The notes under the pieces were generated by a model. The model had not been told where the DNA came from and did not search any database. It saw only the letters and a list, made by a program, of their open reading frames with translations. This document shows, piece after piece, positions 6,349 through 63,288 of a DNA stretch of 64,000 bases (the first letter of the stretch is position 1; every line of letters begins with the position of its first letter). This DNA comes from an uncultured bacterium (GTDB lineage Bacteria > Patescibacteriota > Patescibacteriia > Magasanikbacterales > GWA2-37-8): contig CALCZC010000025.1 of assembly GCA_937903605.1 (NCBI GenBank), forward strand, positions 206,618 to 270,617, given 5' to 3'. A program made the translations under genes and the position numbers.

Positions 6349-6712
<364 letters not shown>

Positions 6713-12564: not shown

Positions 12565-12588
12565 AAAATAAACTAAAAAGTTTAAAAT

Positions 12589-12690
12589 CCTAAGCTCTAA
12601 TTTCTAATTTCTAAATAATATTATCCACCATGGCGGACAAATATCAAAATTAAATATTTGATATTAGATATTGTTTAGAATTTAAGGCTT
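12589..12690. repeat. solo inverted-repeat pair of the AGCTCTAAT/TTTAGAA 7-bp-periodic family around a ~45-bp spacer (cargo-less version of the 13990-14444 cassette arms)
   Basis: CCTAAGCTCTAATTTCTAATTTCTAAATAATATT ... ATATTGTTTAGAATTTAAGGCTT. Confidence 0.45.
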
Positions 12691-12738
12691 TATTTTACTT
12701 AACTATCACAGATTTAAGCCAAAAAGTCAACCATCTGA

Positions 12739-13989: not shown

Positions 13990-14444
13990 GTAGAAATTCT
14001 AAGCTCTAATCCCTAAATCCTAAACAATATTTAATATTAAATAAAAAATTAATCTTTGAATATGATAGAACCGAATATTTTCATTAATTGTGTAGCTTCA
14101 TCTATTAAACTTTTTTGATTTTCTTCTTCTAGAGTTACAGATAATCTTAACCATAAAATAGATTCTTTTGCTTCTTTACGACAAATTTTAATTCTCATCA
14201 TAAAATCTTTTTGACTCAACGCTTCACAAGCCTCTATATAATTTGCCGCCACAGAACCGGATGATCTAATAAGTTGTTTACCATATTCAATATTAGAAAT
14301 AGTTCTAGGCAAGCTTTTAATAAAATCTCTTACATTTCTTGCAAAAATAAAAGTTCTTTCTTCCAAATCGTAGTTTGTTCTTTTTTGTTTTTGAATTTCC
14401 TCCATTTTATATTGTTTAGAATTTAGAGCTTAGAAATTAGAGCT
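13990..14444 (-). mobile_element. IR-bracketed cassette carrying a four-helix-bundle (23S-IVS-type) protein gene, inserted between two MacB-like permease genes
   Basis: Left arm AAGCTCTAATCCCTAAATCCTAAACAATAT (13997-14030) and right arm ATATTGTTTAGAATTTAGAGCTTAGAAATTAGAGCTT (14406-14442) are imperfect inverted repeats that differ by one 7-bp unit. Confidence 0.5.
14049..14405 (-). CDS. four helix bundle protein (TIGR02436; 23S rRNA intervening-sequence protein family)
   Basis: 118 aa; ...GKQLIRSSGSVAANYIEA...EAKESILWLRL... matches the family signature. Confidence 0.8.
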   Translation of the reverse strand: MEEIQKQKRTNYDLEERTFIFARNVRDFIKSLPRTISNIEYGKQLIRSSGSVAANYIEACEALSQKDFMMRIKICRKEAKESILWLRLSVTLEEENQKSLIDEATQLMKIFGSIIFKD

Positions 14445-15680
14445 TCACTCGTAACGTAGTGCTTCTATTGGATCAAGTCTGCTTGCTTTACGCGCCGGAA
14501 TAATTCCAAAAACCAAACCTACTCCGACAGAAACAAAACAACCCAAAAATATCGCAGAAAAAGAAATAATGAATTCCCAATCATAACCCAACCCTTGAGC
14601 TATCCTAGCTACAACAAAAGAAATCATAACTCCCAAAAAGATTCCTATGATTCCACCAAGCGAGGTTATCATTACTGACTCTATCAAAAATTGAATGGTG
14701 ATATTTTTGTTTTTTGCACCCACTGCTTTACGCAACCCTATTTCTCTGGTTCTTTCTTGAACTGCGGCAAGCATAATATTCATAATTCCGACTCCACCCA
14801 CAAGCAGCGCGATAGCGGCTACGGCCACCAAAAACATAGTTAGGGCGTCAGTTATTTGTGTAACCGATTCCAATCCTTGCGCCATGGAACGAATGGAAAA
14901 ATCATCATTTTCCGGATTATCTATATCATGTCGCTCGCGTAAAACTATTTTGGCTTGATCCACCGCACTTTCTACATTTTTTGCTTCGTCAACTTTCAAT
15001 CTGGCAAAACTGACATGATCTATCCCAAGCAATAATTTTTGCGCCGTGGTCAAAGGGACAAAAATCTGGTCATCTTGATTTTGCATCCCGGAAACTCCTC
15101 TTTCTATCATCACCCCAATAACAGTAAAGAAGGTTTTTTTAATTTTTATTTGTTTACCGAGCGGATCTTCGTCCAAAAAAAGATCTCTGGCTGCATCATA
15201 GCCCAATACTGCTAATCTAGAATTTGTCTTTTCTTCTTCCTGAGTAAAAAATCTTCCTTTTTCAACTTTAGTGTCTTCCACCAAAAGATATTCGGCATTG
15301 ACACCGGTAAAATTAGTATCTATTTTTTGATCTTGCCAAGAAACAGTGTCTGTGCCTTTGACATAACCGGTACCGGCAATAAAATAAGGGATTTCTTTGA
15401 TCAGTTCTTTTATGTCGCCGTCAGTTAGAGTTGTTATAACCACACCCATCACCGAAGCCGGCGGACCTTTTTCATCCGCTTTACCTGGGAGTATACCTAC
15501 CAGATTTGTTCCCATACTTTTTACTTGATTGAGAATCAGACTTTGCGCCCCAGCACCAACTGACATTACTACAATCACCGACATCACGCCGATAACAATT
15601 CCAAGCATCGTCAAAAACGACCGAATTTTATTTCGGCCGATTATATGCCAAACATTTTTGATATTTTCAAAAATATCCAT
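14445..15680 (-). CDS. ABC transporter permease, MacB-like (second paralog)
   Basis: 411 aa; same architecture as 12739..13983; ends PIEALRYE. Confidence 0.75.
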   Translation of the reverse strand: MDIFENIKNVWHIIGRNKIRSFLTMLGIVIGVMSVIVVMSVGAGAQSLILNQVKSMGTNLVGILPGKADEKGPPASVMGVVITTLTDGDIKELIKEIPYFIAGTGYVKGTDTVSWQDQKIDTNFTGVNAEYLLVEDTKVEKGRFFTQEEEKTNSRLAVLGYDAARDLFLDEDPLGKQIKIKKTFFTVIGVMIERGVSGMQNQDDQIFVPLTTAQKLLLGIDHVSFARLKVDEAKNVESAVDQAKIVLRERHDIDNPENDDFSIRSMAQGLESVTQITDALTMFLVAVAAIALLVGGVGIMNIMLAAVQERTREIGLRKAVGAKNKNITIQFLIESVMITSLGGIIGIFLGVMISFVVARIAQGLGYDWEFIISFSAIFLGCFVSVGVGLVFGIIPARKASRLDPIEALRYE

Positions 15681-21253: not shown

Positions 21254-21393
21254 AAAATAAAGCATGCTAATTATAAATCAAAAAAATTAAAAAGTAAACA
21301 TTGTTAAAAATCGCTAATTTTAGCGGTTTTTTGTTTATTTTTAAACAATCTTGCAATCTTTCAATCTTTCAATCTTGTAATTTTATCCTAGGG

Positions 21394-21429: not shown

Positions 21430-22262
21430 TCGCTCAAATTGACGAAAAGACCCCTGTGTCTTCAGTCAAATCGGCGAAAGTTCGTTTCAAAACACCAAAA
21501 CCCGCTCGCCAAGGAGGTTCAGATGAACCGTACGAGAGATCGACCGTAAATTTCCCGGTCCAAAACTGAGATCTTTTTTTTAAGAAAACGTCGCAGATCC
21601 AGTAGGACAAATCTCATCGGCAAAGTTCGGTTTTCCAGGACATGTTCCCGGAAGCCTTAACCTGAACCGCCCAATCGGCGCGCCAAACAGCGCAATAAAG
21701 CGCAGGAGGTGTAGGATGTCCAGCATCCGCGATGGTCCCAAGTAATACAATCGTAACTGAACAACCATCTACGAAAAAAGTTTTGATGTTCCGTTCCTCC
21801 CGCCGTCGCCGACGCCTAGAATGGCGCCCCGTGCCCCGGCTTTCGTGGCACTTTTCCGGCGGGTTAAACACGCGAAGGCTAAACGGCATGTCGACGAGGT
21901 TAGGGTCGAGAGATTTCGACCTGGGCTACGTTTTTTTGTACCTCGCGGCAAAGACCGTTTTGGCCCATATCCGGCGTCAGGTCAGCCTCTCTGTAACTTT
22001 TGGAAATGTGTTCCTATGTCCAAGTGACGAGGAGACACTTTCCACTTTCAAAAAAGTTAGAGAGGCTGACACGCCGAGCGAAAATTGCGGATAAACCGGA
22101 TCAGCTTAAAAAACCGGTGATCTCCGCACCAACGTCAAGGCGATTTCTAGGCTTCCGGATCGCCCACGGCTCATCTGCCGTGTACAGTGAAGTCACATTT
22201 TCCCCGGTCTGCGATCAACAACTGAGCGCTCAGTGTTGATTCGCAGCCGGGGCGTTTTTTTT
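21430..22262 (+). ncRNA. large (~0.83 kb) GC-rich structured non-coding RNA of unknown class, flanked by tRNA-Pro genes
   Basis: GC ~50% against ~33% background; only overlapping Arg-rich pseudo-ORFs on both strands; bounded by a consensus promoter and a strong terminator; many local and long-range helices; internal hairpin plus T8 at 21533-21580. Confidence 0.6.
22201..22262 (+). terminator. strong intrinsic terminator (~24-bp interrupted stem followed by T9)
   Basis: CCCCGGTCTGCGATCAACAACTGAGCG / CGCTCAGTGTTGATTCGCAGCCGGGG then CGTTTTTTTTT. Confidence 0.8.
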
Positions 22263-22342
22263 ACATACGAATAAATAGATACTAATATACAAATTGTACT
22301 AATGATACGAATGCTATACGAAAATTTATACGAATGAACAAA

Positions 22343-22417
22343 TTTTAGATTTATGATTTTTGATTTATGAATTACCGTTTTTGTCATTCTAAAATCTGCA
22401 ATCTAAAATCTGAAATT
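22343..22417 (+). repeat. ~75-bp AT-rich composite repeat, copy A (TTTAGATTTATGATTTTTGATTTATGAATTAC...TGTCATTCTAAAATCTGCAATCTAAAATCT)
   Basis: 7-bp periodicity; near-identical copies at 24216-24293, 26158-26234 (inverted) and 49671-49794. Confidence 0.7.
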
Positions 22418-22464
22418 AGTTAATCTTTCAATCTTTAAATCTTGTAATCTTTAAATTTTTTACC

Positions 22465-22501: not shown

Positions 22502-23725
22502 ATGAAACCAAAACAAACTCATAAACCCATCCTCCTCGCTCCCGTCCGAGACGAGGTCTCTTTTACCGCCGCTATTGATGCCGGAGCGGATGCGGTTTAT
22601 TTTGGTATTGGTGAACTAAATATGCGATTAAGCTCCCGTGGGATAAATTTGAAACAACTCCCCCGCTTTGTCAAAAAAGCTCATCAAAAAAATGTTTTGG
22701 TTTATATCGCTCTGAATGTGATTGTTTATGAAAATGAACTGGCGCGAGTAGAAAAAATCCTCAAACAAATCAAAAAATCCGGAGTTGATGCCGTGATAGT
22801 TTCAGATTTTGCTATTATCTCTCTTTGTCAAAAACTCAAGATTCCTTTTCATCTTTCCACTCAAGTTAATATCAGTAATAGCTCTGAAGTGAAATTTTTT
22901 GAACGTCTCGGCGCCAAAGCCGTAGTACTCGCGCGCGAATGTACTCTATCTCAAATCAAAGAGATAAAAAAGAAAAGTAAAATCAAAATAGAAGTTTTTG
23001 TTCACGGTGCGATGTGTGTCTCTGTTTCCGGTCGTTGTTATATGTCGGAATTTACTTCTTGCAAATCCGCCAACCGCGGGCAGTGTTTGCAACCTTGTCG
23101 TCGTGAATATGAAATCAGAGACACCCAAACCGGTGATGAACTCGTCATTGGCAAAGGTTATGTGATGAGTCCGAAAGATCTTTGCACTTTACAAATCCTA
23201 GATAAAGTCATTGCAACCGGCGTGGACATTTTAAAAATAGAAGGCCGTAGTCGATCTCCGGAATATATCAAAACCGTAGTATCTGCTTATCGCCAAGCCA
23301 TAGATGCTGTAGCTACTAAAAAGTTCAACAAAAAACTGACTGACGAACTAATACAAAAAGTTTCTGGGGTGTATAATCGCGGATTTTCTACCGGCTTTCT
23401 TTTTGGCGCACCTAGTAGTGAAGGTTGGGCGAGAATTTCCGGAACTGCATCTAAAATAAAAAAAGAACGCCTCGGATACGTGCGTAATTATTATAGCAAA
23501 AATAAAATTGGGGAAATTTATCTGGAAGCCAATACTCTAAAAGCTGGTGATAAAATTCAAGTAGAAGGTCCAACTACCGGTGTTATTGATTTTGTTATCC
23601 TAGAATTTTGGGTGGATGATAAACCAGCCAAGAGCGCTAAATTGAAAGATGCGATAACGTTTAAGTCGCCGGTTGTTTTGAGAAGGAAGGATAAAGCATA
23701 TAAAATTACAAGATTACAAGATTAA
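22502..23725 (+). CDS. peptidase U32 family protein
   Basis: 407 aa; N-terminal PVRDEVSFTAAIDAGADAVYFG and central EIFVHGAMCVSVSGRCYMS, typical of U32. Confidence 0.7.
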   Translation: MKPKQTHKPILLAPVRDEVSFTAAIDAGADAVYFGIGELNMRLSSRGINLKQLPRFVKKAHQKNVLVYIALNVIVYENELARVEKILKQIKKSGVDAVIVSDFAIISLCQKLKIPFHLSTQVNISNSSEVKFFERLGAKAVVLARECTLSQIKEIKKKSKIKIEVFVHGAMCVSVSGRCYMSEFTSCKSANRGQCLQPCRREYEIRDTQTGDELVIGKGYVMSPKDLCTLQILDKVIATGVDILKIEGRSRSPEYIKTVVSAYRQAIDAVATKKFNKKLTDELIQKVSGVYNRGFSTGFLFGAPSSEGWARISGTASKIKKERLGYVRNYYSKNKIGEIYLEANTLKAGDKIQVEGPTTGVIDFVILEFWVDDKPAKSAKLKDAITFKSPVVLRRKDKAYKITRLQD

Positions 23726-23859
23726 AAGATTGTAAGATTGGACAATTTTAGATTTTTGATTTTTGATTTTAGATTGGTAATTGTCCGCCAAAGGCGGATC
23801 CGCCCGTGGCGGAAAAATTAATTAAAAATTGTAAAATTAAAAATTTAAAATTCTAATTA

Positions 23860-23888: not shown

Positions 23889-24215
23889 TTAGTTGATTTT
23901 TACTTTGGTAAACGGTTGACGATGTCCGTAAGCTTTGTGGTATCTGACTTTTCGTTTGAATTTTTCCACAAGAATCTTTTTGGCACGGCCTTGCATTTCT
24001 ACACTGGCTTCTACGGTCATTTCCAAATATGGAGTACCGATTTTAACATCAGAACCGTCATCTTTGGCAGTCAAAAGGACTTTGTCAAAAACAACTTTCT
24101 CACCTTCTTTAACGGCAAGTTTTTCAATTTTAATGGCATCGCCGGTTTTTACCAAATATTGTTTACCGCCGGTTTCAATAACTGCGATCATAGTTTTGTG
24201 ATTAAATTTATCCAA
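23889..24215 (-). CDS. rplU: 50S ribosomal protein L21 (bL21)
   Basis: MIAVIETGGKQYLVKTGD... is the canonical L21 N-terminus; the true start is probably the internal Met at 24191. Confidence 0.9.
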   Translation of the reverse strand: MDKFNHKTMIAVIETGGKQYLVKTGDAIKIEKLAVKEGEKVVFDKVLLTAKDDGSDVKIGTPYLEMTVEASVEMQGRAKKILVEKFKRKVRYHKAYGHRQPFTKVKIN

Positions 24216-24293
24216 TTTTAGATTTATGATTTTTGATTTATGAATTACAGTTTTTTTGTCATTCTAAAATCTGCATTCTAAAATCTAAAATTC
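24216..24293 (+). repeat. ~75-bp AT-rich composite repeat, copy B (in the rplU 5' leader)
   Basis: Same sequence family as 22343-22417. Confidence 0.7.
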
Positions 24294-24869: not shown

Positions 24870-24904
24870 AAATTAATTATTAGAAATATTGAATATTAAA
24901 TATT

Positions 24905-24975
24905 GGATATTAACCACCCCTCGCCCCTCCTTCGTAAGGAGGGGAAAATATTCAATATCCAGTATTCAGTATTAA
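24905..24975. repeat. GC hairpin element CCCCTCCTT-CGT-AAGGAGGGG flanked by inverted AATATTGAATATT repeats, copy 1
   Basis: Core at 24924-24944; second copy at 48257-48276; three tandem variants in-frame inside rarA at 48877-48971. Confidence 0.65.
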
Positions 24976-26093: not shown

Positions 26094-26157
26094 TTTTGGG
26101 ATTCTAATATATTATCAAACATAATCAAAGTATTCAAAAATCTAAATGTTTTACATA

Positions 26158-26234
26158 TTTTAGATTTTAGAATGCAGATTTTAGAATGACAAAAAATGAT
26201 AATTCATAAATCTTAAATCATAAATCTTAAATTT
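26158..26234 (-). repeat. ~75-bp AT-rich composite repeat, copy C (inverted; in the rpmA 5' leader)
   Basis: Reverse complement matches copies A and B. Confidence 0.7.
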
Positions 26235-26242
26235 ATTAAAGT

Positions 26243-26521
26243 ATGTCCCATAAAAAAGCCGGTGGCTCAACGCGGTTGGGTCGAGATAGTATAGCCAAAA
26301 GACTTGGTATCAAAGTTCATGACGGACAAGAAATCAAATCAGGCATGATTATCGTAAAACAAAGAGGTACAAAAATTCATCCTGGAACCAATGTAAAAAA
26401 AGGAACAGATGATACATTGTTTGCTCTTACCCCAGGTAAAGTAAAATTTACCAACAAGAAAAGAATGCGTTTTGATGGAAAACTCAAAATTGCAAAATAC
26501 GCAAATGTAGTGACGAAATAA
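26243..26521 (+). CDS. rpmA: 50S ribosomal protein L27 (bL27)
   Basis: [16 protein letters not shown]...[14 protein letters not shown] is canonical L27. Confidence 0.9.
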
Positions 26522-27604: not shown

Positions 27605-27678
27605 TGTCATTCCCGCGAAGGCGGGAATCCAGTGGCCGTTTTGATTTTTCCTGGATCCCCGCCTTCGCGGGGATGACA
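27605..27678. repeat. GC-rich nested-hairpin palindromic element (TGTCATTCCCGC-GAAG-GCGGGAATCCAG ... CTGGATCCCCGC-CTTC-GCGGGGATGACA)
   Basis: ~28-bp terminal inverted arms, each itself an 8-bp GC hairpin with a tetraloop; related copies at 42790, 46690, 47491 and 51009. Confidence 0.7.
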
Positions 27679-42715: not shown

Positions 42716-42789
42716 AAAGTTTTATAAAGTTTTTCCAATTTATGATTTATGATTTTAGAATTATGAATTATGATTTACAATCGACAAGT

Positions 42790-42880
42790 TGTCATCCTGA
42801 ACCTCAGGTGAAGGATCCCTTAAACAATGTTTAAAAAAATAGTTAAACTACAAGGGATTCTTCGCTCCGCTCAGAATGAC
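42790..42880. repeat. GC-rich palindromic element of the GTCATYCTGAAC...GAAGRATCCC family
   Basis: Arms GTCATCCTGAACCTCAGGTGAAGGATCCC and, reverse-complemented, GTCATTCTGAGCGGAGCGAAGAATCCC; embedded in an AT-repeat copy ending AATCTGCATTCTAAAATCTAAAATT. Confidence 0.65.
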
Positions 42881-42923
42881 GAAATGGTTTACCAATCATC
42901 AATCTGCATTCTAAAATCTAAAA

Positions 42924-43931
42924 TTATTCGCACATCAGTGCGACAAGTTCTTTGAACTTGACTTTCGGTTCCCACCCAAGAATATTCTTCGCTTTGGTGG
43001 CATCACCTAAAAGTAAATCCACTTCCGCCGGACGAAAATAACGTTTATCTATTTCAATAATAGTTTTACCGGTATTTTTATCTATTCCCACTTCCTGTAT
43101 CCCGCTCCCCTGCCAAACAATATCAAAACCGAAATATTTTCCCGCAACTTCAGCAAATTCGCGCACAGTATGAGTTTCTCCAGTGGCAATAACATAATCA
43201 TCGGGTTTATCTTGTTGAAGCATTTTCCACATCGCTTCTACATAATCTTTTGCATATCCCCAATCGCGTTTGGCATCCAGGTTGCCTAAATATAATTTTT
43301 CTTGTTTACCTTCTTTGATATTTCGTAACGCATCGGTGATTTTTTTGGTAACAAAGGTCCCGCCACGACGAGGAGATTCGTGGTTAAAAAGAATTCCGTT
43401 ACAGATAAACATATCATATGACTCGCGATAATTCACACACAGCCAATGCGCGTAAACTTTAGCACAAGCATAAGGACTGCGCGGATAAAAAGGCGTTGTT
43501 TCTTTTTGCGGAGTTTCTTGTACCTTACCAAACATTTCAGATGATCCAGCTTGATAAAATCTGGTTTTTATACCGGTCTCTTTGATAGCGTCCAGCAATC
43601 GTAAAGTTCCCAGTCCATCGGTATTACCTGTGAAAACCGGCATTTCAAAACTTACTTGCACATGACTTTGTGCACCGAGATTATAAATTTCATCAGGTTT
43701 TATTTGCTCCAAAAGGCGAGAAATATTACTACCATCGGTCAAATCTCCATAATGCAAAAACAATTTTACACCGTTCACATGCGGATCTTGATAAAGATGA
43801 TCAATGCGAGAAGTATTGAAAGTGCTGCTACGGCGAATCAAACCATGAACTTCATAGCCTTTAGATAGTAATAACTCGGCTAGGTATGAGCCATCTTGGC
43901 CGGTTATGCCGGTGATGAAAGCTTTTTTCAT
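42924..43931 (-). CDS. gmd: GDP-mannose 4,6-dehydratase
   Basis: [22 protein letters not shown] is the canonical Gmd N-terminus. Confidence 0.9.
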
Positions 43932-43957
43932 ATGTATAATCCGAATAACAATTTAAA

Positions 43958-44434
43958 GATTTAAAGATTGAAAGATTTAAAGATTGTTAAATTGTGTAAC
44001 TATTTTTTGTAATGTAAATTATCCAACAAATAACTACGAAAATTCGATAAATGGGTAGAAATCTTGTATATTTCTTCAATTAAATTTTCTGCTGTTTTAT
44101 TTTCTATATAATTATTATCCAATAAAATATATAGAATCGTTCTGACTTCTCCAGCTGAACCTTTGGCAATATTTATAAAATTAGCAAATTCTTTATTTGA
44201 ACTTCTTTCAAAACCTTCAGCTATATTTAAAGAGATTGAATAGGTCGCTCTTTTTAATTGATCACAGATAGAATAGTCCTTTTTTAATTTTTGATTATCG
44301 TCAATCAACTTATAAATATTAGCAACAAATTTTCTTGAAATTTGCCAAATTGGAATATCTTCAAATTTTTTATACTGCATACCCTCCCTTATTAATTAAA
44401 TTTTTAATCTTTAAATCTTTCAATCTTTAAATCT
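43958..44434 (-). mobile_element. cassette with perfect ~29-bp inverted repeats bracketing a second four-helix-bundle protein gene
   Basis: GATTTAAAGATTGAAAGATTTAAAGATT at 43958-43987; its exact reverse complement AATCTTTAAATCTTTCAATCTTTAAATC at 44406-44434. Confidence 0.6.
44000..44380 (-). CDS. four helix bundle protein (TIGR02436; 23S rRNA IVS protein family), second copy
   Basis: 126 aa; ...ATYSISLNIAEGFER...GSAGEVRTILY... family signature. Confidence 0.8.
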   Translation of the reverse strand: MQYKKFEDIPIWQISRKFVANIYKLIDDNQKLKKDYSICDQLKRATYSISLNIAEGFERSSNKEFANFINIAKGSAGEVRTILYILLDNNYIENKTAENLIEEIYKISTHLSNFRSYLLDNLHYKK

Positions 44435-44441
44435 TGCAATT

Positions 44442-46478
44442 TTACTCGCCCGCTGGCGTAGCCATAATCTGTGCAATAATATTATTTTCATTTTCTGTAA
44501 AAGTTACTCCGTTTTGCTGTGCTAATTGCAAAATATTTAAAGCCTTTTCATTTTCTCCGGCGATTTTATAAACATAAGCCAAACGCCAATAGCTTTCACC
44601 AATTTTAGCATTATCTTTTATCGCTCCGTCAAGCAATTTGATAGCGTCGTTAAATTTACCCATCTGCATCTGCAACATAGAAAGCGAATAAATCAACTGC
44701 TGACGGCGCGGTGATTTATTCAGCGCATCTTTGAGATAATTTTCCGCTTCCGCCATTTTTTGTGGATCATTATTAAGTTGTGCCATCACTTGCGCCATTT
44801 GCGACAGAGTCATCTGATTGCGAATGTCTAGGGGGTGAAGATCTGTATTTTTATGCAGTTCCGTAAAACAAACATCTAGGATTTTTTTTAAGAAATCTTT
44901 TTGTGCTTGTTGATTTTGCATCACGGTATAAGCGATTTGCACTACGGAACGAGAGATATCACTCCTGATATCATCAATATGCGGAGATTGAAAATGCAAT
45001 GCATCCTCCACTACACTCAACGCTATGGTCGGATTTTGATTGAGCGCTTTGATGGCAGTGAGAGATTTACTATTAGCACGAGCGGGTTGAAGATTAAAAA
45101 TTAAGATAAAGATTAAGACCAAAATTCCAGCTACAGAAACCGCACCAAAAGAAATGTTTTTATTAACTGAAGCAACTTTTTCAGTATTTTCATCCGGAAG
45201 CAAAGTAAGACGAGAAACCATAGCCAGCACGAACATAAAATAAATATATGAAGTCAAGTTTTCAAATACTGTAATATTTTCCACCAAATGCGAAATCACA
45301 TAGACTGATAAAACAATAAACAAAATCAAATCAATGTGTTTTTTGCGATACGCGATAGTAAGCGAAAAGAAAGCAATAGCAAAAAGTAGTAGATATACCA
45401 AAATACCAAATGTCCCCTGTACTGCCATAGTGTTGAGTACTATGTTGTGCGCATTATCAAACCAAGTTTCACCATATCCATGATCAAGAGATAGTGGGTT
45501 GTAATGAGTATTAAAAACATAAAAATAGTTGTTTGGTCCCCAACCAAAAACCGGTCTATCTTGCCAACCTTGCAGAGCTATTTTCCAAGCAATCCAACGA
45601 GGAGAAGCTTTGATATCAGAATATGAAGTATTGATAGCACGACCAACAGCTGGAATATTTCGGACAAAATCAGTTTGACGATTCAGATATAAAACTCCGA
45701 ATAACAAGGCAAAAGCTATAAGAGACCCCCAGAGATAAATTTTGGCTTTTGGATTATTTCTAAGTGAAACTGCTAATAAAAAGATGGTAAGCGGAATAGC
45801 TATACCCAAAGCCAAGATATCACCACGGGTACCGGAGAAAAAAATGTTGGCAAAAGCTAACAAAAACATCCCGCCCAAAATCCAACGCCAATACTGCTCC
45901 TTTTCCTTGATAAAAAGCAAAATCGCCATTGACGATAAAAACAAAGCATAACCACCCACATAAATAGGGTTCCCCAATGTACTGGCGACACGATCAGAAC
46001 CTTGGTTGAGTAGTAAATCCGGGTTGCCAACTTGTAAAAACCCGACAAACATCACGCCCATACCGGCGGTCAGGAAAACTTTTAAAGCCAAGCGGTAATC
46101 CGCCCAGGTCTGGAGTACCGCACCGACAATGTAAAAATAAATTACATAATGAGTAATAGTAAAAAACCCGAGCATGCGTTCGTGGTTATCCCAAAAACTA
46201 TGATAAGGGTCTACACCCAAAAAAGTAGAAAGTCCGAAACTGAGCCAAAACAAAAATACAGCGATATTTACCGGGGTAAATTTAGGTTTAAATTCTTTAA
46301 AATCTAAAATCAAAAGTAAACTATAAAGCCCAAGCATCACCATGACTATGGAACGGAAGGCCAAAATCTTTGGCACGATGAAGGGAAAAATAAATGAGCT
46401 TGGAAGTACGATAAGCGGAACGAAAAAACTGGCGTAAATTAGCAGTTTTATCGCCAAAATTACTTTGTCTTTAGACAT
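44442..46478 (-). CDS. O-antigen ligase (Wzy_C) family membrane protein with C-terminal TPR repeats
   Basis: 678 aa; ~12 TM N-terminal half; C-terminal ~250 aa of TPR-like helices. Confidence 0.55.
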   Translation of the reverse strand: MSKDKVILAIKLLIYASFFVPLIVLPSSFIFPFIVPKILAFRSIVMVMLGLYSLLLILDFKEFKPKFTPVNIAVFLFWLSFGLSTFLGVDPYHSFWDNHERMLGFFTITHYVIYFYIVGAVLQTWADYRLALKVFLTAGMGVMFVGFLQVGNPDLLLNQGSDRVASTLGNPIYVGGYALFLSSMAILLFIKEKEQYWRWILGGMFLLAFANIFFSGTRGDILALGIAIPLTIFLLAVSLRNNPKAKIYLWGSLIAFALLFGVLYLNRQTDFVRNIPAVGRAINTSYSDIKASPRWIAWKIALQGWQDRPVFGWGPNNYFYVFNTHYNPLSLDHGYGETWFDNAHNIVLNTMAVQGTFGILVYLLLFAIAFFSLTIAYRKKHIDLILFIVLSVYVISHLVENITVFENLTSYIYFMFVLAMVSRLTLLPDENTEKVASVNKNISFGAVSVAGILVLIFILIFNLQPARANSKSLTAIKALNQNPTIALSVVEDALHFQSPHIDDIRSDISRSVVQIAYTVMQNQQAQKDFLKKILDVCFTELHKNTDLHPLDIRNQMTLSQMAQVMAQLNNDPQKMAEAENYLKDALNKSPRRQQLIYSLSMLQMQMGKFNDAIKLLDGAIKDNAKIGESYWRLAYVYKIAGENEKALNILQLAQQNGVTFTENENNIIAQIMATPAGE

Positions 46479-46589: not shown

Positions 46590-46689
46590 TAGCATAATCT
46601 GATATTTCAGATTTATGATTTCAGATTGATGATTTCAGATTTATGATTAATAAATATTGGATATTAGAATATTAGATATTAAAATAATA

Positions 46690-46854
46690 TGTCATTCCCG
46701 CCTCCGAGCGGGAATCCAGTAGTTCGTCATTCTGAATTTATTTCAGGATCTCCCTTTTGTGGCTCAGTAGGGAGATGCCGAAACAAGTTCGGCATGACAC
46801 TTTGTGCTAATTTTTCCTGGATCCCCGCCTTCGCGGGGATGACACAACCTGTCA
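46690..46854. repeat. composite/nested GC-rich palindromic element (TGTCATTCCCGC...GCGGGGATGACA with an internal GTCATTCTGAAT...GGCATGACAC element)
   Basis: Same conserved termini as 27605-27678, with a second element nested between the arms. Confidence 0.65.
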
Positions 46855-46925
46855 TTCTAAAATCTGCAATCATAAATTGTTTGCTAACAAAATAAAACCC
46901 CTATCAGATTAATAAATATATATTT

Positions 46926-47429: not shown

Positions 47430-47490
47430 TCTCAAAAGTCAAAACGCAAAAGTCAAAACCAAAACCTTAAATGTCAAAACTAACACAAAG

Positions 47491-47581
47491 TGTCATTACG
47501 AATCCGCAAAGCGGATGAAGTAATCCCACTGTTTTCTGAATTTTGTGGGATTGCTTCGTCATTACACTCCTCGCAATGACA
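47491..47581. repeat. GC-rich palindromic element (TGTCATTACGAATCCGC-AAA-GCGGAT ... TCGCAATGACA)
   Basis: Same family; lies between the convergent tsaE and queH genes. Confidence 0.6.
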
Positions 47582-47586
47582 AGGTT

Positions 47587-48168: not shown

Positions 48169-48229
48169 AAAAAATTTATAAATTTCAAGATTTAAAGATT
48201 AAAAGATTGAAAGATTTTGATATTGGATA

Positions 48230-48295
48230 TTGAATATTAAATATTAACCACCCCTACCCCTCCTTCGTAAGGAGGGTAATATCCAGTATTCAATA
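48230..48295. repeat. GC hairpin element CCCCTCCTT-CGT-AAGGAGGG with flanking AATATT repeats, copy 2
   Basis: Core at 48257-48276; same as 24924-24944. Confidence 0.65.
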
Positions 48296-48303
48296 TTCAT
48301 TAT

Positions 48304-49653
48304 TTATTTTCGCAAGTATTTTTTATTTTTCAACTCTTCCGGCAAATATTCTTGATCAACAGGTCCGGTGTGATCCGGATTATATTTATAACCATCACCA
48401 TAACCGATATCTTTCATAAAACCCGTCACTGCATTGCGCAGGTGAAGTGGTACACCCAGATGAGAAGTATTTTCCGCATCTTTCATCGCCTTTTCATAAG
48501 CCACATACAACAAATTGGACTTGGTGGATTTGGCGCAATAAACTACAGCTTGAGCTAGATGAACTCCGCATTCAGGCATACCCAAACGATGACAAGCGTC
48601 GTACGCGGCATTGGCTTGGATAAGCGCTTCGCCATTGGCCATACCAATATCCTCACTGGCAAATCTGACCACTCGTCGCGCCACATAAAGAGGATCGGCT
48701 CCACCCTGCAACATTCGAGCTAACCAATAAATAGCAGCATCCGGATCGCTACCGCGCATAGATTTGTGTAGCGCGGAAATGAGGTTATAAAATTCCTCTC
48801 CTTGTTTATCAAAAACCACGTTTACTTTTTGTGCCGCTTCTTTAACAATTTCTTTGGTGATGTCTACCTCACCCCGCCCCTCTCCTTTTAAAGGAGAGGG
48901 TGACTGACCTCCCCCCGCCCCTCCTTCGTAAGGAGGGGATAATTGTCCCTCCTCTCCTTGCGAAGGAGAGGATTGAGGTGAGGTCTTCACCGCTAACTCC
49001 AAAATATTCAATGCTGTCCGCGCATCACCACCGGAAAAAAAGACGATACTTTTAATCACCTCATCATCAATTTTTATTTTTATATCTCCCAATCCTCGCT
49101 CTTTGTCCATCAACGCTCTTTTTATCACTTGAACCAAATCCTCTTCACCAAGAGATTTCAAAACAAAAACTCGCGAACGAGAAAGTAAAGCGCGAATAAT
49201 TTCAAACGAAGGATTTTCCGTAGTAGCGCCGATAAGAATTATTTCTCCCTGTTCTACATAAGGCAATAATGCATCTTGTTGGGCTTTATTCCAACGATGA
49301 ATTTCATCAATAAATAGAATAGTGCGCAAATTTTCTTTTTCTTTTTTTTCTTTGGCCACTATTACTGCCTGACGCAACTCTTCTTTACCGCTCATCACCG
49401 CAGATAGTTGAATAAAGTGAGATTTTGTTTTAGTGGCAATAATTTTGGCCAAAGTTGTTTTACCTACTCCCGGTGGTCCCCAAAAAATCAATGAAGTTAA
49501 ATCATCGCTTTCTATCAAACGGCGCAATATCTTACCCTGACCCACGATATCGGCCTGTCCAAAAAATCCGTCAAAATCAAGAGGACGCATACGCTCGGCG
49601 AGAGGAACAGAGTTTGTTGCTACAGTTTGAATTTTGTTCTGTTTAGGAGACAT
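48304..49653 (-). CDS. rarA: replication-associated recombination protein A (RarA/MgsA AAA+ ATPase) with ~40-aa low-complexity insertion
   Basis: GPPGVGKTTLA, DEIHRWNKAQQD, C-terminal MgsA_C; the insertion SPSQGEEGQLSPPYEGGAGGGQSPSPLKGEGRGE is encoded by three tandem GC hairpin repeats. Confidence 0.85.
   Translation of the reverse strand: MSPKQNKIQTVATNSVPLAERMRPLDFDGFFGQADIVGQGKILRRLIESDDLTSLIFWGPPGVGKTTLAKIIATKTKSHFIQLSAVMSGKEELRQAVIVAKEKKEKENLRTILFIDEIHRWNKAQQDALLPYVEQGEIILIGATTENPSFEIIRALLSRSRVFVLKSLGEEDLVQVIKRALMDKERGLGDIKIKIDDEVIKSIVFFSGGDARTALNILELAVKTSPQSSPSQGEEGQLSPPYEGGAGGGQSPSPLKGEGRGEVDITKEIVKEAAQKVNVVFDKQGEEFYNLISALHKSMRGSDPDAAIYWLARMLQGGADPLYVARRVVRFASEDIGMANGEALIQANAAYDACHRLGMPECGVHLAQAVVYCAKSTKSNLLYVAYEKAMKDAENTSHLGVPLHLRNAVTGFMKDIGYGDGYKYNPDHTGPVDQEYLPEELKNKKYLRK
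48877..48971. repeat. three tandem GC hairpin repeats (CCCTCTCCTTT-T-AAAGGAGAGGG; CCCCTCCTT-CGT-AAGGAGGGG; CCTCTCCTT-GCG-AAGGAGAGG) in-frame inside rarA
   Basis: Same family as the intergenic copies at 24924 and 48257. Confidence 0.65.
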
Positions 49654-49670
49654 AATCTTTATAAAAAATA

Positions 49671-49794
49671 TTTTAGATTTATGATTTATGATTTAAGAAT
49701 TATGAATTATGTAACAAAATACAAAATATTACAAAATTACAAAAAAGATAAGTTGTCCTGTCATTCTAAAATCTGCATTCTAAAATCTAAAATT
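49671..49794 (+). repeat. AT-rich composite repeat, copy D (with a ~45-bp internal insertion)
   Basis: TTTTAGATTTATGATTTATG...TGTCATTCTAAAATCTGCATTCTAAAATCTAAAATTC. Confidence 0.65.
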
Positions 49795-51008: not shown

Positions 51009-51126
51009 TGTCATTCTGATCCGCCCAGGCGGAGAAGAATCCCTTGTATTTTAAATGTTTTTAAGAAGCATTGTTTAAGAGATCCTTTCCCAACGGGACC
51101 CCTTTGGGGCACACGTTCAGGATGAC
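51009..51126. repeat. GC-rich palindromic element (TGTCATTCTGATCCGCC-CAG-GCGGAGAAGAATCCC ... GAGATCCTTTCC...CAGGATGAC)
   Basis: Same terminal consensus family GTCATYCTGA...GAAGRATCYC. Confidence 0.6.
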
Positions 51127-51180
51127 GAACTGTCGGTCGTAATTATAAAATCATAAATCTGAAATCACAAATCATCAATT

Positions 51181-55225: not shown

Positions 55226-55253
55226 AAAAAAGACCTTTGAAAAGGTCTTTTTT
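55226..55253. terminator. bidirectional terminator AAAAAAGACCTTT-GAAA-AGGTCTTTTTT
   Basis: Perfect hairpin with A-run on one side and T-run on the other. Confidence 0.65.
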
Positions 55254-55258
55254 AATTT

Positions 55259-55390
55259 CTATTTTCCACAATCACATCCACAACCGCAAGTTTCTTCTTC
55301 TTTTTCTTCACATTTGCAGTCTGGACCACAGTCACAACCTTCTTTACCACATTCACAAGGTTCTTGTGGTTTTAATTCATCTAAGTTCAT
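55259..55390 (-). CDS. small cysteine-rich metallothionein-like protein (43 aa; absent from the ORF track)
   Basis: Minus-strand translation MNLDELKPQEPCECGKEGCDCGPDCKCEEKEEETCGCGCDCGK*; 12 Cys in CxC and CxCxC arrays; own consensus promoter and terminator. Confidence 0.45.
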   Translation of the reverse strand: MNLDELKPQEPCECGKEGCDCGPDCKCEEKEEETCGCGCDCGK

Positions 55391-55431
55391 AGTTTTTGTT
55401 TACGGCTACTAAAAGTAGCTACTCGGGGTAT

Positions 55432-63215: not shown

Positions 63216-63288
63216 ACAATAAATTAAAAAATTGCAAGATTGAAAGATTTAAAAATTATTTGGATACGAAATACAAAAATATACGTAA

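Follow-up and report, generated by a model that had tools for sequence, protein, structure and literature searches.

A candidate intervening-sequence-type cassette with a four-helix-bundle protein gene in a protein-coding glycan operon

RNase III cleaves the stem of the rRNA intervening sequence (IVS) of Leptospira, as has been established experimentally. The IVS of Coxiella burnetii, 428 nt long and situated in helix 45 of the 23S rRNA, carries an S23p open reading frame (ORF) in the loop of an inverted-repeat stem, within which RNase III sites have been mapped; three to four tandem heptamers (GACAGAT), variable in copy number between strains, lie just before its ATG (PMC4990558). Older proposals, recorded in the same publication, regard IVSs as transposition relics or mobile elements (PMC4990558). 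The protein Avd of diversity-generating retroelements (DGRs) belongs to the same Pfam family as the four-helix-bundle (4HB) protein considered here (PMC10053308). All five Avd protomers contact an 11-bp RNA stem-loop, and the sequences on either side of the DGR template base-pair with one another (bioRxiv 10.1101/2023.10.23.563531).

Here we analyze a 4HB gene and its flanking repeats in a 64-kb stretch of DNA (64,000 nt, hereafter the window) with a G+C content of 35%, whose proteins have their nearest relatives in Candidatus Magasanikbacteria (Patescibacteria) and which is part of a contig of 348 kb in ERZ724087. The closest known kind of element is the S23p-bearing rRNA IVS, of which we regard the window cassette as a non-rRNA variant.

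The cassette between the ligase gene and gmd

Three genes follow one another on the − strand: an O-antigen-ligase/TPR gene (Wzy_C+TPR, 44442..46478; hereafter the ligase), the 4HB gene (44000..44380) and gmd (42924..43931). The features of the cassette, in transcription order and followed by two short flanking sequences, are these:

44406..44441, − strand: 5' arm in the sense of transcription, reading AATTGCAAGATTTAAAGATTGAAAGATTTAAAGATT on the − strand; purine-rich tandem octamer array with a perfect core at 44406-44435
44381..44405, − strand: leader with a strong Shine-Dalgarno (SD) sequence, AAGGGAGGGT (CCCTCCC on the + strand at 44382-44388)
44000..44380, − strand: gene for a 4HB protein of 126 aa (TIGR02436 / PF05635, S23p family), supported by profile matches, selection and a structural model
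43950..43985, − strand: 3' arm, reading AATCTTTAAATCTTTCAATCTTTAAATCTTTAAATT on the − strand; pyrimidine-rich tandem octamer array with a perfect core at 43956-43985
43949..43955, no strand assigned: CAATTTA, possible target-site duplication partner of CAATTTTA, overlapping the outer, partly self-complementary end of the inverted repeat; read from the sequence
44437..44444, no strand assigned: CAATTTTA, possible duplication partner of CAATTTA, including the ligase stop codon

The earlier note had placed a second TIGR02436-like gene between gmd and the O-antigen-ligase/TPR gene, and both annotation and profile scores agree with it: the product of 44000..44380 exceeded the curated cut-offs of PF05635 ('23S rRNA-intervening sequence protein', 111.2 bits, cut-off 33.8) and of TIGR02436 ('four helix bundle protein', 108.8 bits, cut-off 24). 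The AlphaFold (AF2) monomer model of the 126-aa protein (pLDDT 95.4) has a four-helix-bundle fold like those of 2GSC (Foldseek TM 0.83–0.94, rmsd 1.5–1.6; also matched by sequence at 2e-14) and 2RLD (TM 0.78–0.90), the two pentamers of the S23p family with solved structures. With dN/dS of 0.06–0.2 among its homologues, the gene is, by this codon-level measure, under purifying selection and its protein functional. The SD sequence AAGGGAGGGT is placed in the loop, outside the stem, and SD and leader are kept in 4HB homologues from other gene contexts. A phage origin was considered; 2.9 million viral contigs gave one weak match to the 4HB subfamily, which is practically absent from them. Two further candidates were rejected: for a defence system, PADLOC gave no match for the cassette, and for an integron gene cassette, arms are present on both sides and no integrase is found in the window.

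The inverted repeat is perfect over 30 bp (43956-43985 / 44406-44435) and lengthens to 36 nt at 94% complementarity (43950-43985 / 44406-44441). It had been described as a 29-bp repeat with an exact reverse complement; the exact complementarity is real, but the perfect length is 30 bp, and the arm then quoted, GATTTAAAGATTGAAAGATTTAAAGATT, which is present together with its reverse complement at 44406-44433, has 28 nt and occupies 43958-43985 rather than 43958-43987. Both arms are tandem octamers, (AAGATTKA)n, and hold about 4–5 repeat units, and the start codon of gmd lies 24 nt beyond the end of the 3' arm. When the sense-strand RNA was folded (MFE −106.8 kcal/mol, z = −3.9 versus shuffles), the stem enclosed the whole 4HB ORF in both the MFE and the centroid structure. 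The IVS arrangement of terminal inverted repeats as a stem with an S23p ORF in the loop is found here as well. A purine-rich 5' arm was initially taken to fix the orientation of the ORF, a view that was dropped: the inverted repeat reads the same on both strands, and polarity therefore belongs to the element and not to ORF orientation.

In a consensus scan of 43850-44550, promoter-like sites were no more numerous than in shuffled sequence and the arms contained no terminator; no known RNA family was found at the arms or the GC-rich region. Rfam detected no rRNA in the 64-kb window, which also contains no rnc gene. Arm copy number did not vary among samples with an identical 4HB gene (five contigs). 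No long direct repeat and no TR/VR pair were found within 43500-44900.

The last result bears on the reading of the gene as a remnant or accessory gene (Avd) of a DGR, which the Pfam family in common with Avd (PMC10053308) and the shared superfamily and fold would favour. The model superposes on Avd (4DWL, TM 0.76/0.88) more distantly than on 2GSC and 2RLD, and sequence identity is ~10%; Avd genes are not described with flanking inverted tandem arrays. The window gene has neither a reverse transcriptase (RT) nor a TR/VR pair nearby: no RT occurs among the 55 window ORFs scanned or annotated, in the 20 kb around the gene, or in the contexts of three homologues. We give a DGR origin practically no credence.

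Insertion and turnover at gene junctions

We annotated 80 metagenome loci with ligase relatives locally. The order ligase, gmd, fcl was common among them, and 33 ligase–gmd junctions were measurable. The spacer was 1–31 nt long in 24 of the 33 and held neither gene nor arms, and the tight junction is therefore ancestral. The closest relatives and a few more distant ones differ in what the junction contains:

L185 (97% ligase identity): identical cassette in arm, leader and the first 64 codons, at which point the contig stops
L184 and L016 (94–95% ligase identity): a 147-aa GxxExxY/PDDEXK_3 gene between its own TACGAAAT octamer arms
L024 and L018 (80% ligase identity): a different 4HB paralog with AAAGTTYA arms
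L017 (80% ligase identity): a 101-nt ORF-less hairpin of the GATTT type
L019 (78% ligase identity): three nucleotides

Presence of the cassette at this junction is sporadic among close relatives, as is that of IVSs, and relatives without the 4HB gene here are also without its arms. The case that would have spoken against a cassette, arms kept as a promoter or terminator pair in genomes that lack the gene, was not seen at this junction. Comparison of the loci shows that the unit at 44 kb (arms, leader and ORF) is an insertion into an ancestrally tight ligase–gmd junction and that the content of this junction turns over among close relatives, which have a 4HB gene, a different 4HB paralog, a GxxExxY gene or a hairpin alone there, or no insert at all; the comparisons at 94–97% show this turnover to be recent. 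The GxxExxY genes (TIGR04256, PF13366) resemble the 4HB gene in occupying the same junction between their own inverted octamer arms (L184, L016), which share with the window arm only the first ~13 nt past the ligase stop codon; they differ in their unrelated, nuclease-like fold, two examples having been compared.

The nearest homologues of the 4HB protein (75–82% identity) stand in unrelated contexts (YgjP–4HB–TspO, ?–4HB–Rrf2 and Na_Ca_ex–4HB–?), in every case in the same orientation as their neighbours. A tandem array rich in purines precedes each gene and the complementary array follows it, as matched arms of its own. These loci are homologous to one another over the ORF, some 25 nt of leader and, more loosely, the arms; their outer flanks are unrelated. 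Further copies and empty sites both exist, and the cassette interpretation put forward in the earlier note is supported. Recent transposition of the 4HB cassette is not visible in these data: the exact 126-aa protein was met in one gene context only, and synonymous sites (dS) are saturated between homologues. Given this saturation at 75–82% identity, the events separating those homologues are therefore old.

Three more places in the window carry arms of this general build:

13993..14446, − strand: first cassette, with a 4HB paralog ORF (14049..14405) between arms at 13993-14035 and 14404-14446 (units TTAGAGCT / TAGAAAT)
12585..12700, no strand assigned: ORF-less twin of the first cassette's arms, with the same left and right arms and a short GC-rich loop
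46605..46879, no strand assigned: tsaE–ligase spacer, with arms of GATTT-type octamers at 46605-46648 and 46856-46879 enclosing GC-rich MITE-like palindromes

The first cassette is real, and the cassette at 44 kb, as had been claimed, holds a different paralog between different arms: ORF 14049..14405 scored 68.9 bits against TIGR02436, and the two window 4HB proteins are barely alignable to each other (E = 5e-4). In the predicted RNA fold of the first cassette the stem likewise closes the ORF (z = −2.5), and its polarity is reversed, the 5' arm being pyrimidine-rich. This cassette is inserted between MacB1 and MacB2 (MacB/FtsX genes), which overlap by 8 nt in three relatives at 82% and lie 1 nt apart in a relative at 73%. 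An 84% relative (L176) has a 107-nt ORF-less insert at the same junction; its right part resembles the 3' arm of the window's first cassette. In both the window and L176, the MacB1/MacB2 overlap, ATGAAT(A), is duplicated, with one copy at either side of the insert. The ORF-less twin lies 1.3 kb from the first cassette. At the tsaE–ligase spacer, the orthologous arms of L185 (97% ligase identity) enclose a 120-aa 4HB gene, and this pair of loci shows, at the level of sequence, that loop contents turn over within conserved arms.

Repeat tracts in the window and arms across the family

The AAGATTKA tract is also found in five further spacers of the window (18 matches versus 0.36 expected); the repeat is therefore far beyond chance, yet the arms are not unique sequences. 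The octamer scan gave the following tracts:

48187..48216, + strand: solo AAGATTKA tract, without a 4HB gene, 19 nt upstream of queH
63236-63257, 22422-22459, 21355-21376 and 23699-23740: further solo tracts resembling that at 48187..48216

Solo octamer arrays precede queH, tatD, a U32 peptidase gene and a strong promoter, and may serve a purpose that has nothing to do with the 4HB gene. Start codons lie 19–43 nt downstream of several solo tracts, and one tract abuts the strong promoter. Nearly all sizeable spacers of the window hold tracts with an 8-nt period, in several flavours (TAGATTTW, AAGATTKA, ATATTGRA, TACGAATN, GTATTAAG and TAGAGCTT), which in many cases make hairpins centred on a GC-rich core or on a GTCATTC...GAATGAC palindrome. 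One dispersed palindrome is represented by three identical 29-mers in 64 kb and is present in L017 too. The ORF-less hairpins and solo tracts far outnumber the 4HB genes in the window, and six-frame translation of the window revealed no degraded 4HB remnants in ORF-less hairpins at E ≤ 50.

Hairpin repeats or MITEs that occupy bacterial spacers and are processed by RNase III are exemplified by Correia/NEMIS (Neisseria) and REP/BIME. The window's ORF-less hairpins are alike in being short, palindromic, multi-copy, probably co-transcribed with genes and polymorphic in insertion. They differ in that the window arms are built of 8-nt tandem repeats and some copies bear a whole gene in the loop.

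The abundance of such tracts raises the possibility that they are a generic spacer feature, promoter- or terminator-proximal or REP-like filler, and that the 4HB gene merely lies between an opposed pair by chance. Besides the AAGATTKA tracts at five other spacers and the other 8-nt-period types that fill most spacers, a whole-window scan found inverted pairs around three housekeeping genes (MacB2, U32 peptidase and PLD). Each of these three lies between two copies of complete dispersed palindromes, however, unlike the 4HB genes, each of which lies between the two halves of a single palindrome; the suggestion that the housekeeping pairs undermine the cassette was rejected on this ground. The absence of arms from relatives that lack the gene at the ligase–gmd junction also argues against chance, as do the association of arms with 4HB genes in several phyla (78% versus about 3%) and the pairing of arms locus by locus, both described below. 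Chance juxtaposition is largely refuted by the control and swap tests, and we hold it to be very improbable.

Insertion polymorphism among close relatives would also be expected of a DNA transposon or MITE-like element, whose arms would be terminal inverted repeats (TIRs) for a transposase or recombinase supplied in trans, with a short target duplication and with the ORF-less hairpins as non-autonomous derivatives. Such a reading is about element movement and not about the role of the stem, and is therefore compatible with RNA processing. Terminal inverted repeats are present, though as low-complexity tandem arrays. The multi-copy ORF-less hairpins (the three identical 29-mers, also in L017) and the ORF-less twin of the first cassette's arms are consistent with it, and so are the direct repeats CAATTTA / CAATTTTA just outside the core and ATGAAT(A) on both sides at the MacB junction. 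As a target-site duplication of the cassette at 44 kb, however, the former pair is suggestive only: the direct repeats are short, A/T-rich and partly self-complementary, the duplication-like cases (this cassette and the MacB junction) are few and establish no fixed length, and the duplication at the MacB junction could reflect selection keeping both genes intact. Near-identical multiple copies were seen for the ORF-less hairpins only, not for the 4HB cassette, and homologous cassettes are unlike in their low-complexity arms. No transposase, integrase-type recombinase or RT occurs among the 55 window ORFs that were scanned or annotated. The same repeat tracts occur without the gene, and the arms are therefore not classical transposon ends. 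The earlier cassette reading is qualified in this respect: the arms are not unique repeats of the transposon type, since such tracts also occur solo or as ORF-less hairpins in spacers. We consider the transposon or MITE-like reading unlikely.

We surveyed flanking arms across the family in 80 loci on contigs from one genome per species, with 78 homologues scored. The taxa were Patescibacteria, Bacteroidales, Nostoc, Pyrinomonadaceae, Desulfobaccia and other Deltaproteobacteria, and Phycisphaeraceae; selection by two peptide motifs restricts the sample to one large subfamily. For each gene, 110 nt upstream were scored against the reverse complement of 110 nt downstream, and a score of at least 16 was counted as positive. 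The median was 21 for 4HB genes and 7 for 394 other genes of the same loci, with 78% of the 78 homologues positive versus 2.8% of the 394 controls (Mann-Whitney p = 4e-37). Among stricter controls (spacers of at least 50 nt on both sides, not adjacent to a 4HB gene), 3 of 84 were positive, two of which are another TIGR02436 gene and a GxxExxY gene. A GxxExxY member (L098) was one of the top-scoring 'controls' of the survey.

The surveyed arms are ~33 nt long; the upstream one stops ~22 nt short of the start codon and the downstream one starts ~13 nt past the stop codon. Purines dominate the 5' arm in 54 of the 61 positives and pyrimidines in 2; the repeat period is 7–9 nt in 52 (7 nt in 31, 8 nt in 19 and 9 nt in 2). 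Repeat units vary by lineage: GGGGAAA in Nostoc, GGGGAAAAGG in Deltaproteobacteria, GGGTAAAT in Acidobacteriota, GAGTTCC in Phycisphaeraceae and AAGATTGA in Patescibacteria. When arms were swapped between Patescibacteria loci, in 17 of 21 cases the 3' arm native to a locus outscored 90% or more of those from elsewhere, which marks the arms as matched pairs and not one generic motif. Inverted tandem-repeat arms are shown by these flank comparisons to be a hallmark of the 4HB family in the 78 sampled homologues, across several phyla. Three chance-met members of another 4HB subfamily (the first cassette, L129 and L106) also bear arms. In the literature searched, where the papers on the Coxiella IVS and on DGRs and Avd were the relevant ones, we found no description of inverted tandem-repeat flanks for non-rRNA members of TIGR02436/PF05635, nor of arms across the family together with exchange of 4HB genes, GxxExxY genes and MITEs within them.

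Arrays of this kind could also be binding sites. The putatively pentameric 4HB protein would bind the repeat units or the stem, as RNA or DNA, in autoregulation, mRNA protection or RNP assembly, and the inverted arrangement would follow from that role. The contact of the Avd pentamer with an 11-bp RNA stem-loop and the superposition of our model on Avd are in keeping with this, as are the number of units per arm (about 4–5) and the finding that paralogs differ in unit, whether they share a genome or a junction. Repeat units follow lineage and the base composition of the genome, however, and paralog-specific recognition is therefore conjectural; furthermore, the window's 4HB genes are far fewer than its ORF-less hairpins and solo tracts. 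We regard protein-binding arrays as a doubtful explanation.

Comparison with rRNA IVSs and proposed processing

Like the rRNA IVSs of Coxiella and Leptospira, the window cassette has a PF05635 ORF in the loop of a long stem of terminal inverted repeats, and it resembles rRNA IVSs in element size (about 430–500 nt) and in its sporadic presence among relatives. With the Coxiella IVS in particular it shares short purine-rich tandem repeats in the 5' arm, just before the start codon. Unlike rRNA IVSs, it lies between two protein-coding genes of a glycan operon; it therefore departs from IVSs in location while matching their design. The ORF in Coxiella is in decay and loses its SD to cleavage, whereas the window ORF is intact with a strong SD in the loop, and RNase III processing, shown in Coxiella, is inferred for the window cassette.

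We hypothesize, with a probability of roughly 0.6, that the unit is a single-gene cassette of IVS design that resides outside rRNA, in the spacer of a protein-coding operon; its arms would pair with each other in the transcript and probably be cleaved by RNase III. Such an IVS-type cassette would comprise a 30–43 bp stem whose loop holds a translatable, selectively maintained S23p/TIGR02436 ORF together with a ribosome-binding site of its own. The 4HB cassette is probably co-transcribed with the ligase and gmd, because it shares their strand and neither a promoter nor a terminator is conspicuous. The arms would pair in the RNA and host RNase III would cut the stem, by analogy with the Coxiella and Leptospira IVSs. 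Cleavage would free an SD-bearing 4HB mRNA from the flanking messages and leave the ligase and gmd ORFs intact, because the stem starts at the ligase stop codon and ends 24 nt short of the gmd start. Such self-removal at the transcript level would make the insertion nearly harmless and could explain its toleration in operons and rRNA genes alike. The tandem-repeat arms, which the scattered ORF-less hairpins have in common with the cassette, may serve as persistent landing or recombination sites at which loop contents are gained, lost or swapped. The short direct repeats outside the arms hint at insertion by staggered cuts, but they are too few and too A/T-rich to be evidence for it. A second, non-exclusive idea is that the putatively pentameric 4HB protein may bind the stem of the arms, as Avd binds its RNA.

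Several observations run counter to this proposal. The stem is A/U-rich, and the 381-nt ORF must stay unpaired for the arms to meet. Solo octamer tracts occur without a 4HB gene, and polarity is reversed in the first cassette and in 2 of the 61 positive loci. In Coxiella the ORF decays and loses its SD in processing, unlike the window ORF.

If the IVS design is the normal packaging of the family, rRNA IVSs, whose origin and spread have been in question since about 1990, would be one landing site of a much larger class of elements. A broader version of the IVS-type reading is possible, and we offer it tentatively, as rather improbable: 4HB genes, and possibly GxxExxY genes, would be carried by a large class of hairpin cassettes that occurs in many phyla, with arms that act both as RNase III-cleavable stems and as exchange sites. 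The pentamer would bind the arm stem and may aid mobility, rRNA IVSs would be the special case that was noticed first, and much of the DNA between genes in Patescibacteria would consist of ORF-less derivatives.

In cyanobacteria, Bacteroidota, Acidobacteriota and the Candidate Phyla Radiation, few small-gene annotations that lack an explanation are as common as TIGR02436. Arms built of tandem repeats may account for breaks in assemblies, two Logan contigs having their ends within the arm, and for spurious 'CRISPR-linked' calls for the 4HB domain. For annotation, operons in such genomes can be broken by small, probably self-excising, cassettes. The turnover of the ligase–gmd junction among relatives at 94–97% provides natural before-and-after pairs for the insertion mechanism. 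If the IVS design is indeed how the family is normally packaged, the function of the 4HB proteins would be sought in RNA processing or stem binding and not in the ribosome.

Small genes between inverted repeats

The hairpin arms in the tsaE-ligase spacer are orthologous between positions 46605-46879 of the window and positions 60-520 of L185, a related metagenome locus with 97% ligase identity. In the window these arms enclose GC-rich MITE-like palindromes, whereas in L185 they enclose a 120-aa TIGR02436-type gene. Here the loop contents have recently been exchanged while the arms were conserved. In two loci with 94-95% ligase identity (L184, 2308-2873; L016, 3830-3957), the ligase-gmd junction is occupied by a 147-aa GxxExxY/PDDEXK_3 gene with inverted TACGAAAT octamer arrays on both flanks, and it therefore represents a second small-gene family that is packaged like the four-helix-bundle (4HB) gene and occupies the site of that gene. 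Another GxxExxY gene (metagenome locus L098, 5599-6009) was one of few non-4HB 'control' genes to show strong inverted repeats on its flanks. The window contains a further arrangement of this kind:

6377-6634, GIY-YIG-like ORF of 85 aa
6359-6375 and 6626-6642, perfect 17-nt inverted repeat around this ORF
6349-6359 and 6640-6650, 11-nt direct repeat GGGCCGGTAGC, outside the inverted repeat

The second copy of the direct repeat (6640-6650) forms the 5' end of tRNA-Lys. The whole segment (6349-6650) looks like another small single-gene cassette with inverted-repeat flanks, whose insertion at a tRNA gene left a clear target duplication.

Hairpins and palindromes

A dispersed family of ORF-less hairpins, with arms TTTTAGATTTATGATTT.../...TCTAAAATCTGCATTCTAAAATCTAAAAT, is present in six copies in the 64-kb window, three of which share an identical 29-mer, and occurs also at the ligase-gmd junction of L017 (80% ligase identity). 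These hairpins are MITE-like and insertion-polymorphic. GC-rich palindromic elements are nested at the centres of A/T-rich octamer hairpins and give rise to spurious ORFs.

22340-22420, 24214-24292, 26157-26235, 42742-42927 and 49670-49793, example spacers of the dispersed ORF-less hairpins
27605-27678, 46691-46843, 42770-42890, 51009-51130 and 47490-47586, the GC-rich palindromes, whose ends are of the GTCATTCCCGC...GCGGGGATGAC type

A near-identical hairpin pair (48215-48305, z = -4.0; 24880-24970), found in the regions downstream of mgsA and a glycosyltransferase-4 gene, has a GC-rich stem CCCTCCTTACGAAGGAGGG extended by ATATTGRA octamer arms. These look like intrinsic-terminator cores inside repeat arms.

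A candidate large non-coding RNA

An octamer tract (AATCTT) also adjoins the -35 box of a promoter, which is followed by ~840 nt at 43-59% G+C, compared with 35% for the genome:

21395-21423, plus strand, near-consensus promoter TTGACA-N17-TATACT
22243-22262, plus strand, hairpin and T-run closing the G+C-rich stretch

The sole ORF between 21395 and 22262 (21732..22094) had no Pfam match, and no Rfam family matched this segment, even at E <= 1. This plus-strand segment is a candidate for a large unclassified non-coding RNA.

Possible assembly breaks, array calls and short genes

In Logan assemblies of the short-read runs SRR3330212 and SRR3330209, two independent contigs with the 4HB gene in identical form (L002, L005) both begin within the 5' arm, at GATTTAAAGATT..., and the repeat tracts appear to break assemblies. 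A figure legend in a large clustering study places '23S rRNA IVP' among domains linked to CRISPR arrays (PMC10910872); tandem-repeat arms around such genes could have been miscalled as CRISPR arrays. The ORF list of the window used a 100-aa threshold and may have missed shorter genes, for which three candidate gaps were picked by eye:

23900-24215, minus strand
26240-26520, plus strand
55240-55395, minus strand

These look as if they hold a ribosomal protein L21-like gene, an L27-like gene and a small cysteine-rich ORF. If real, they would be ordinary genes, and some of the long 'spacers' would hold genes.
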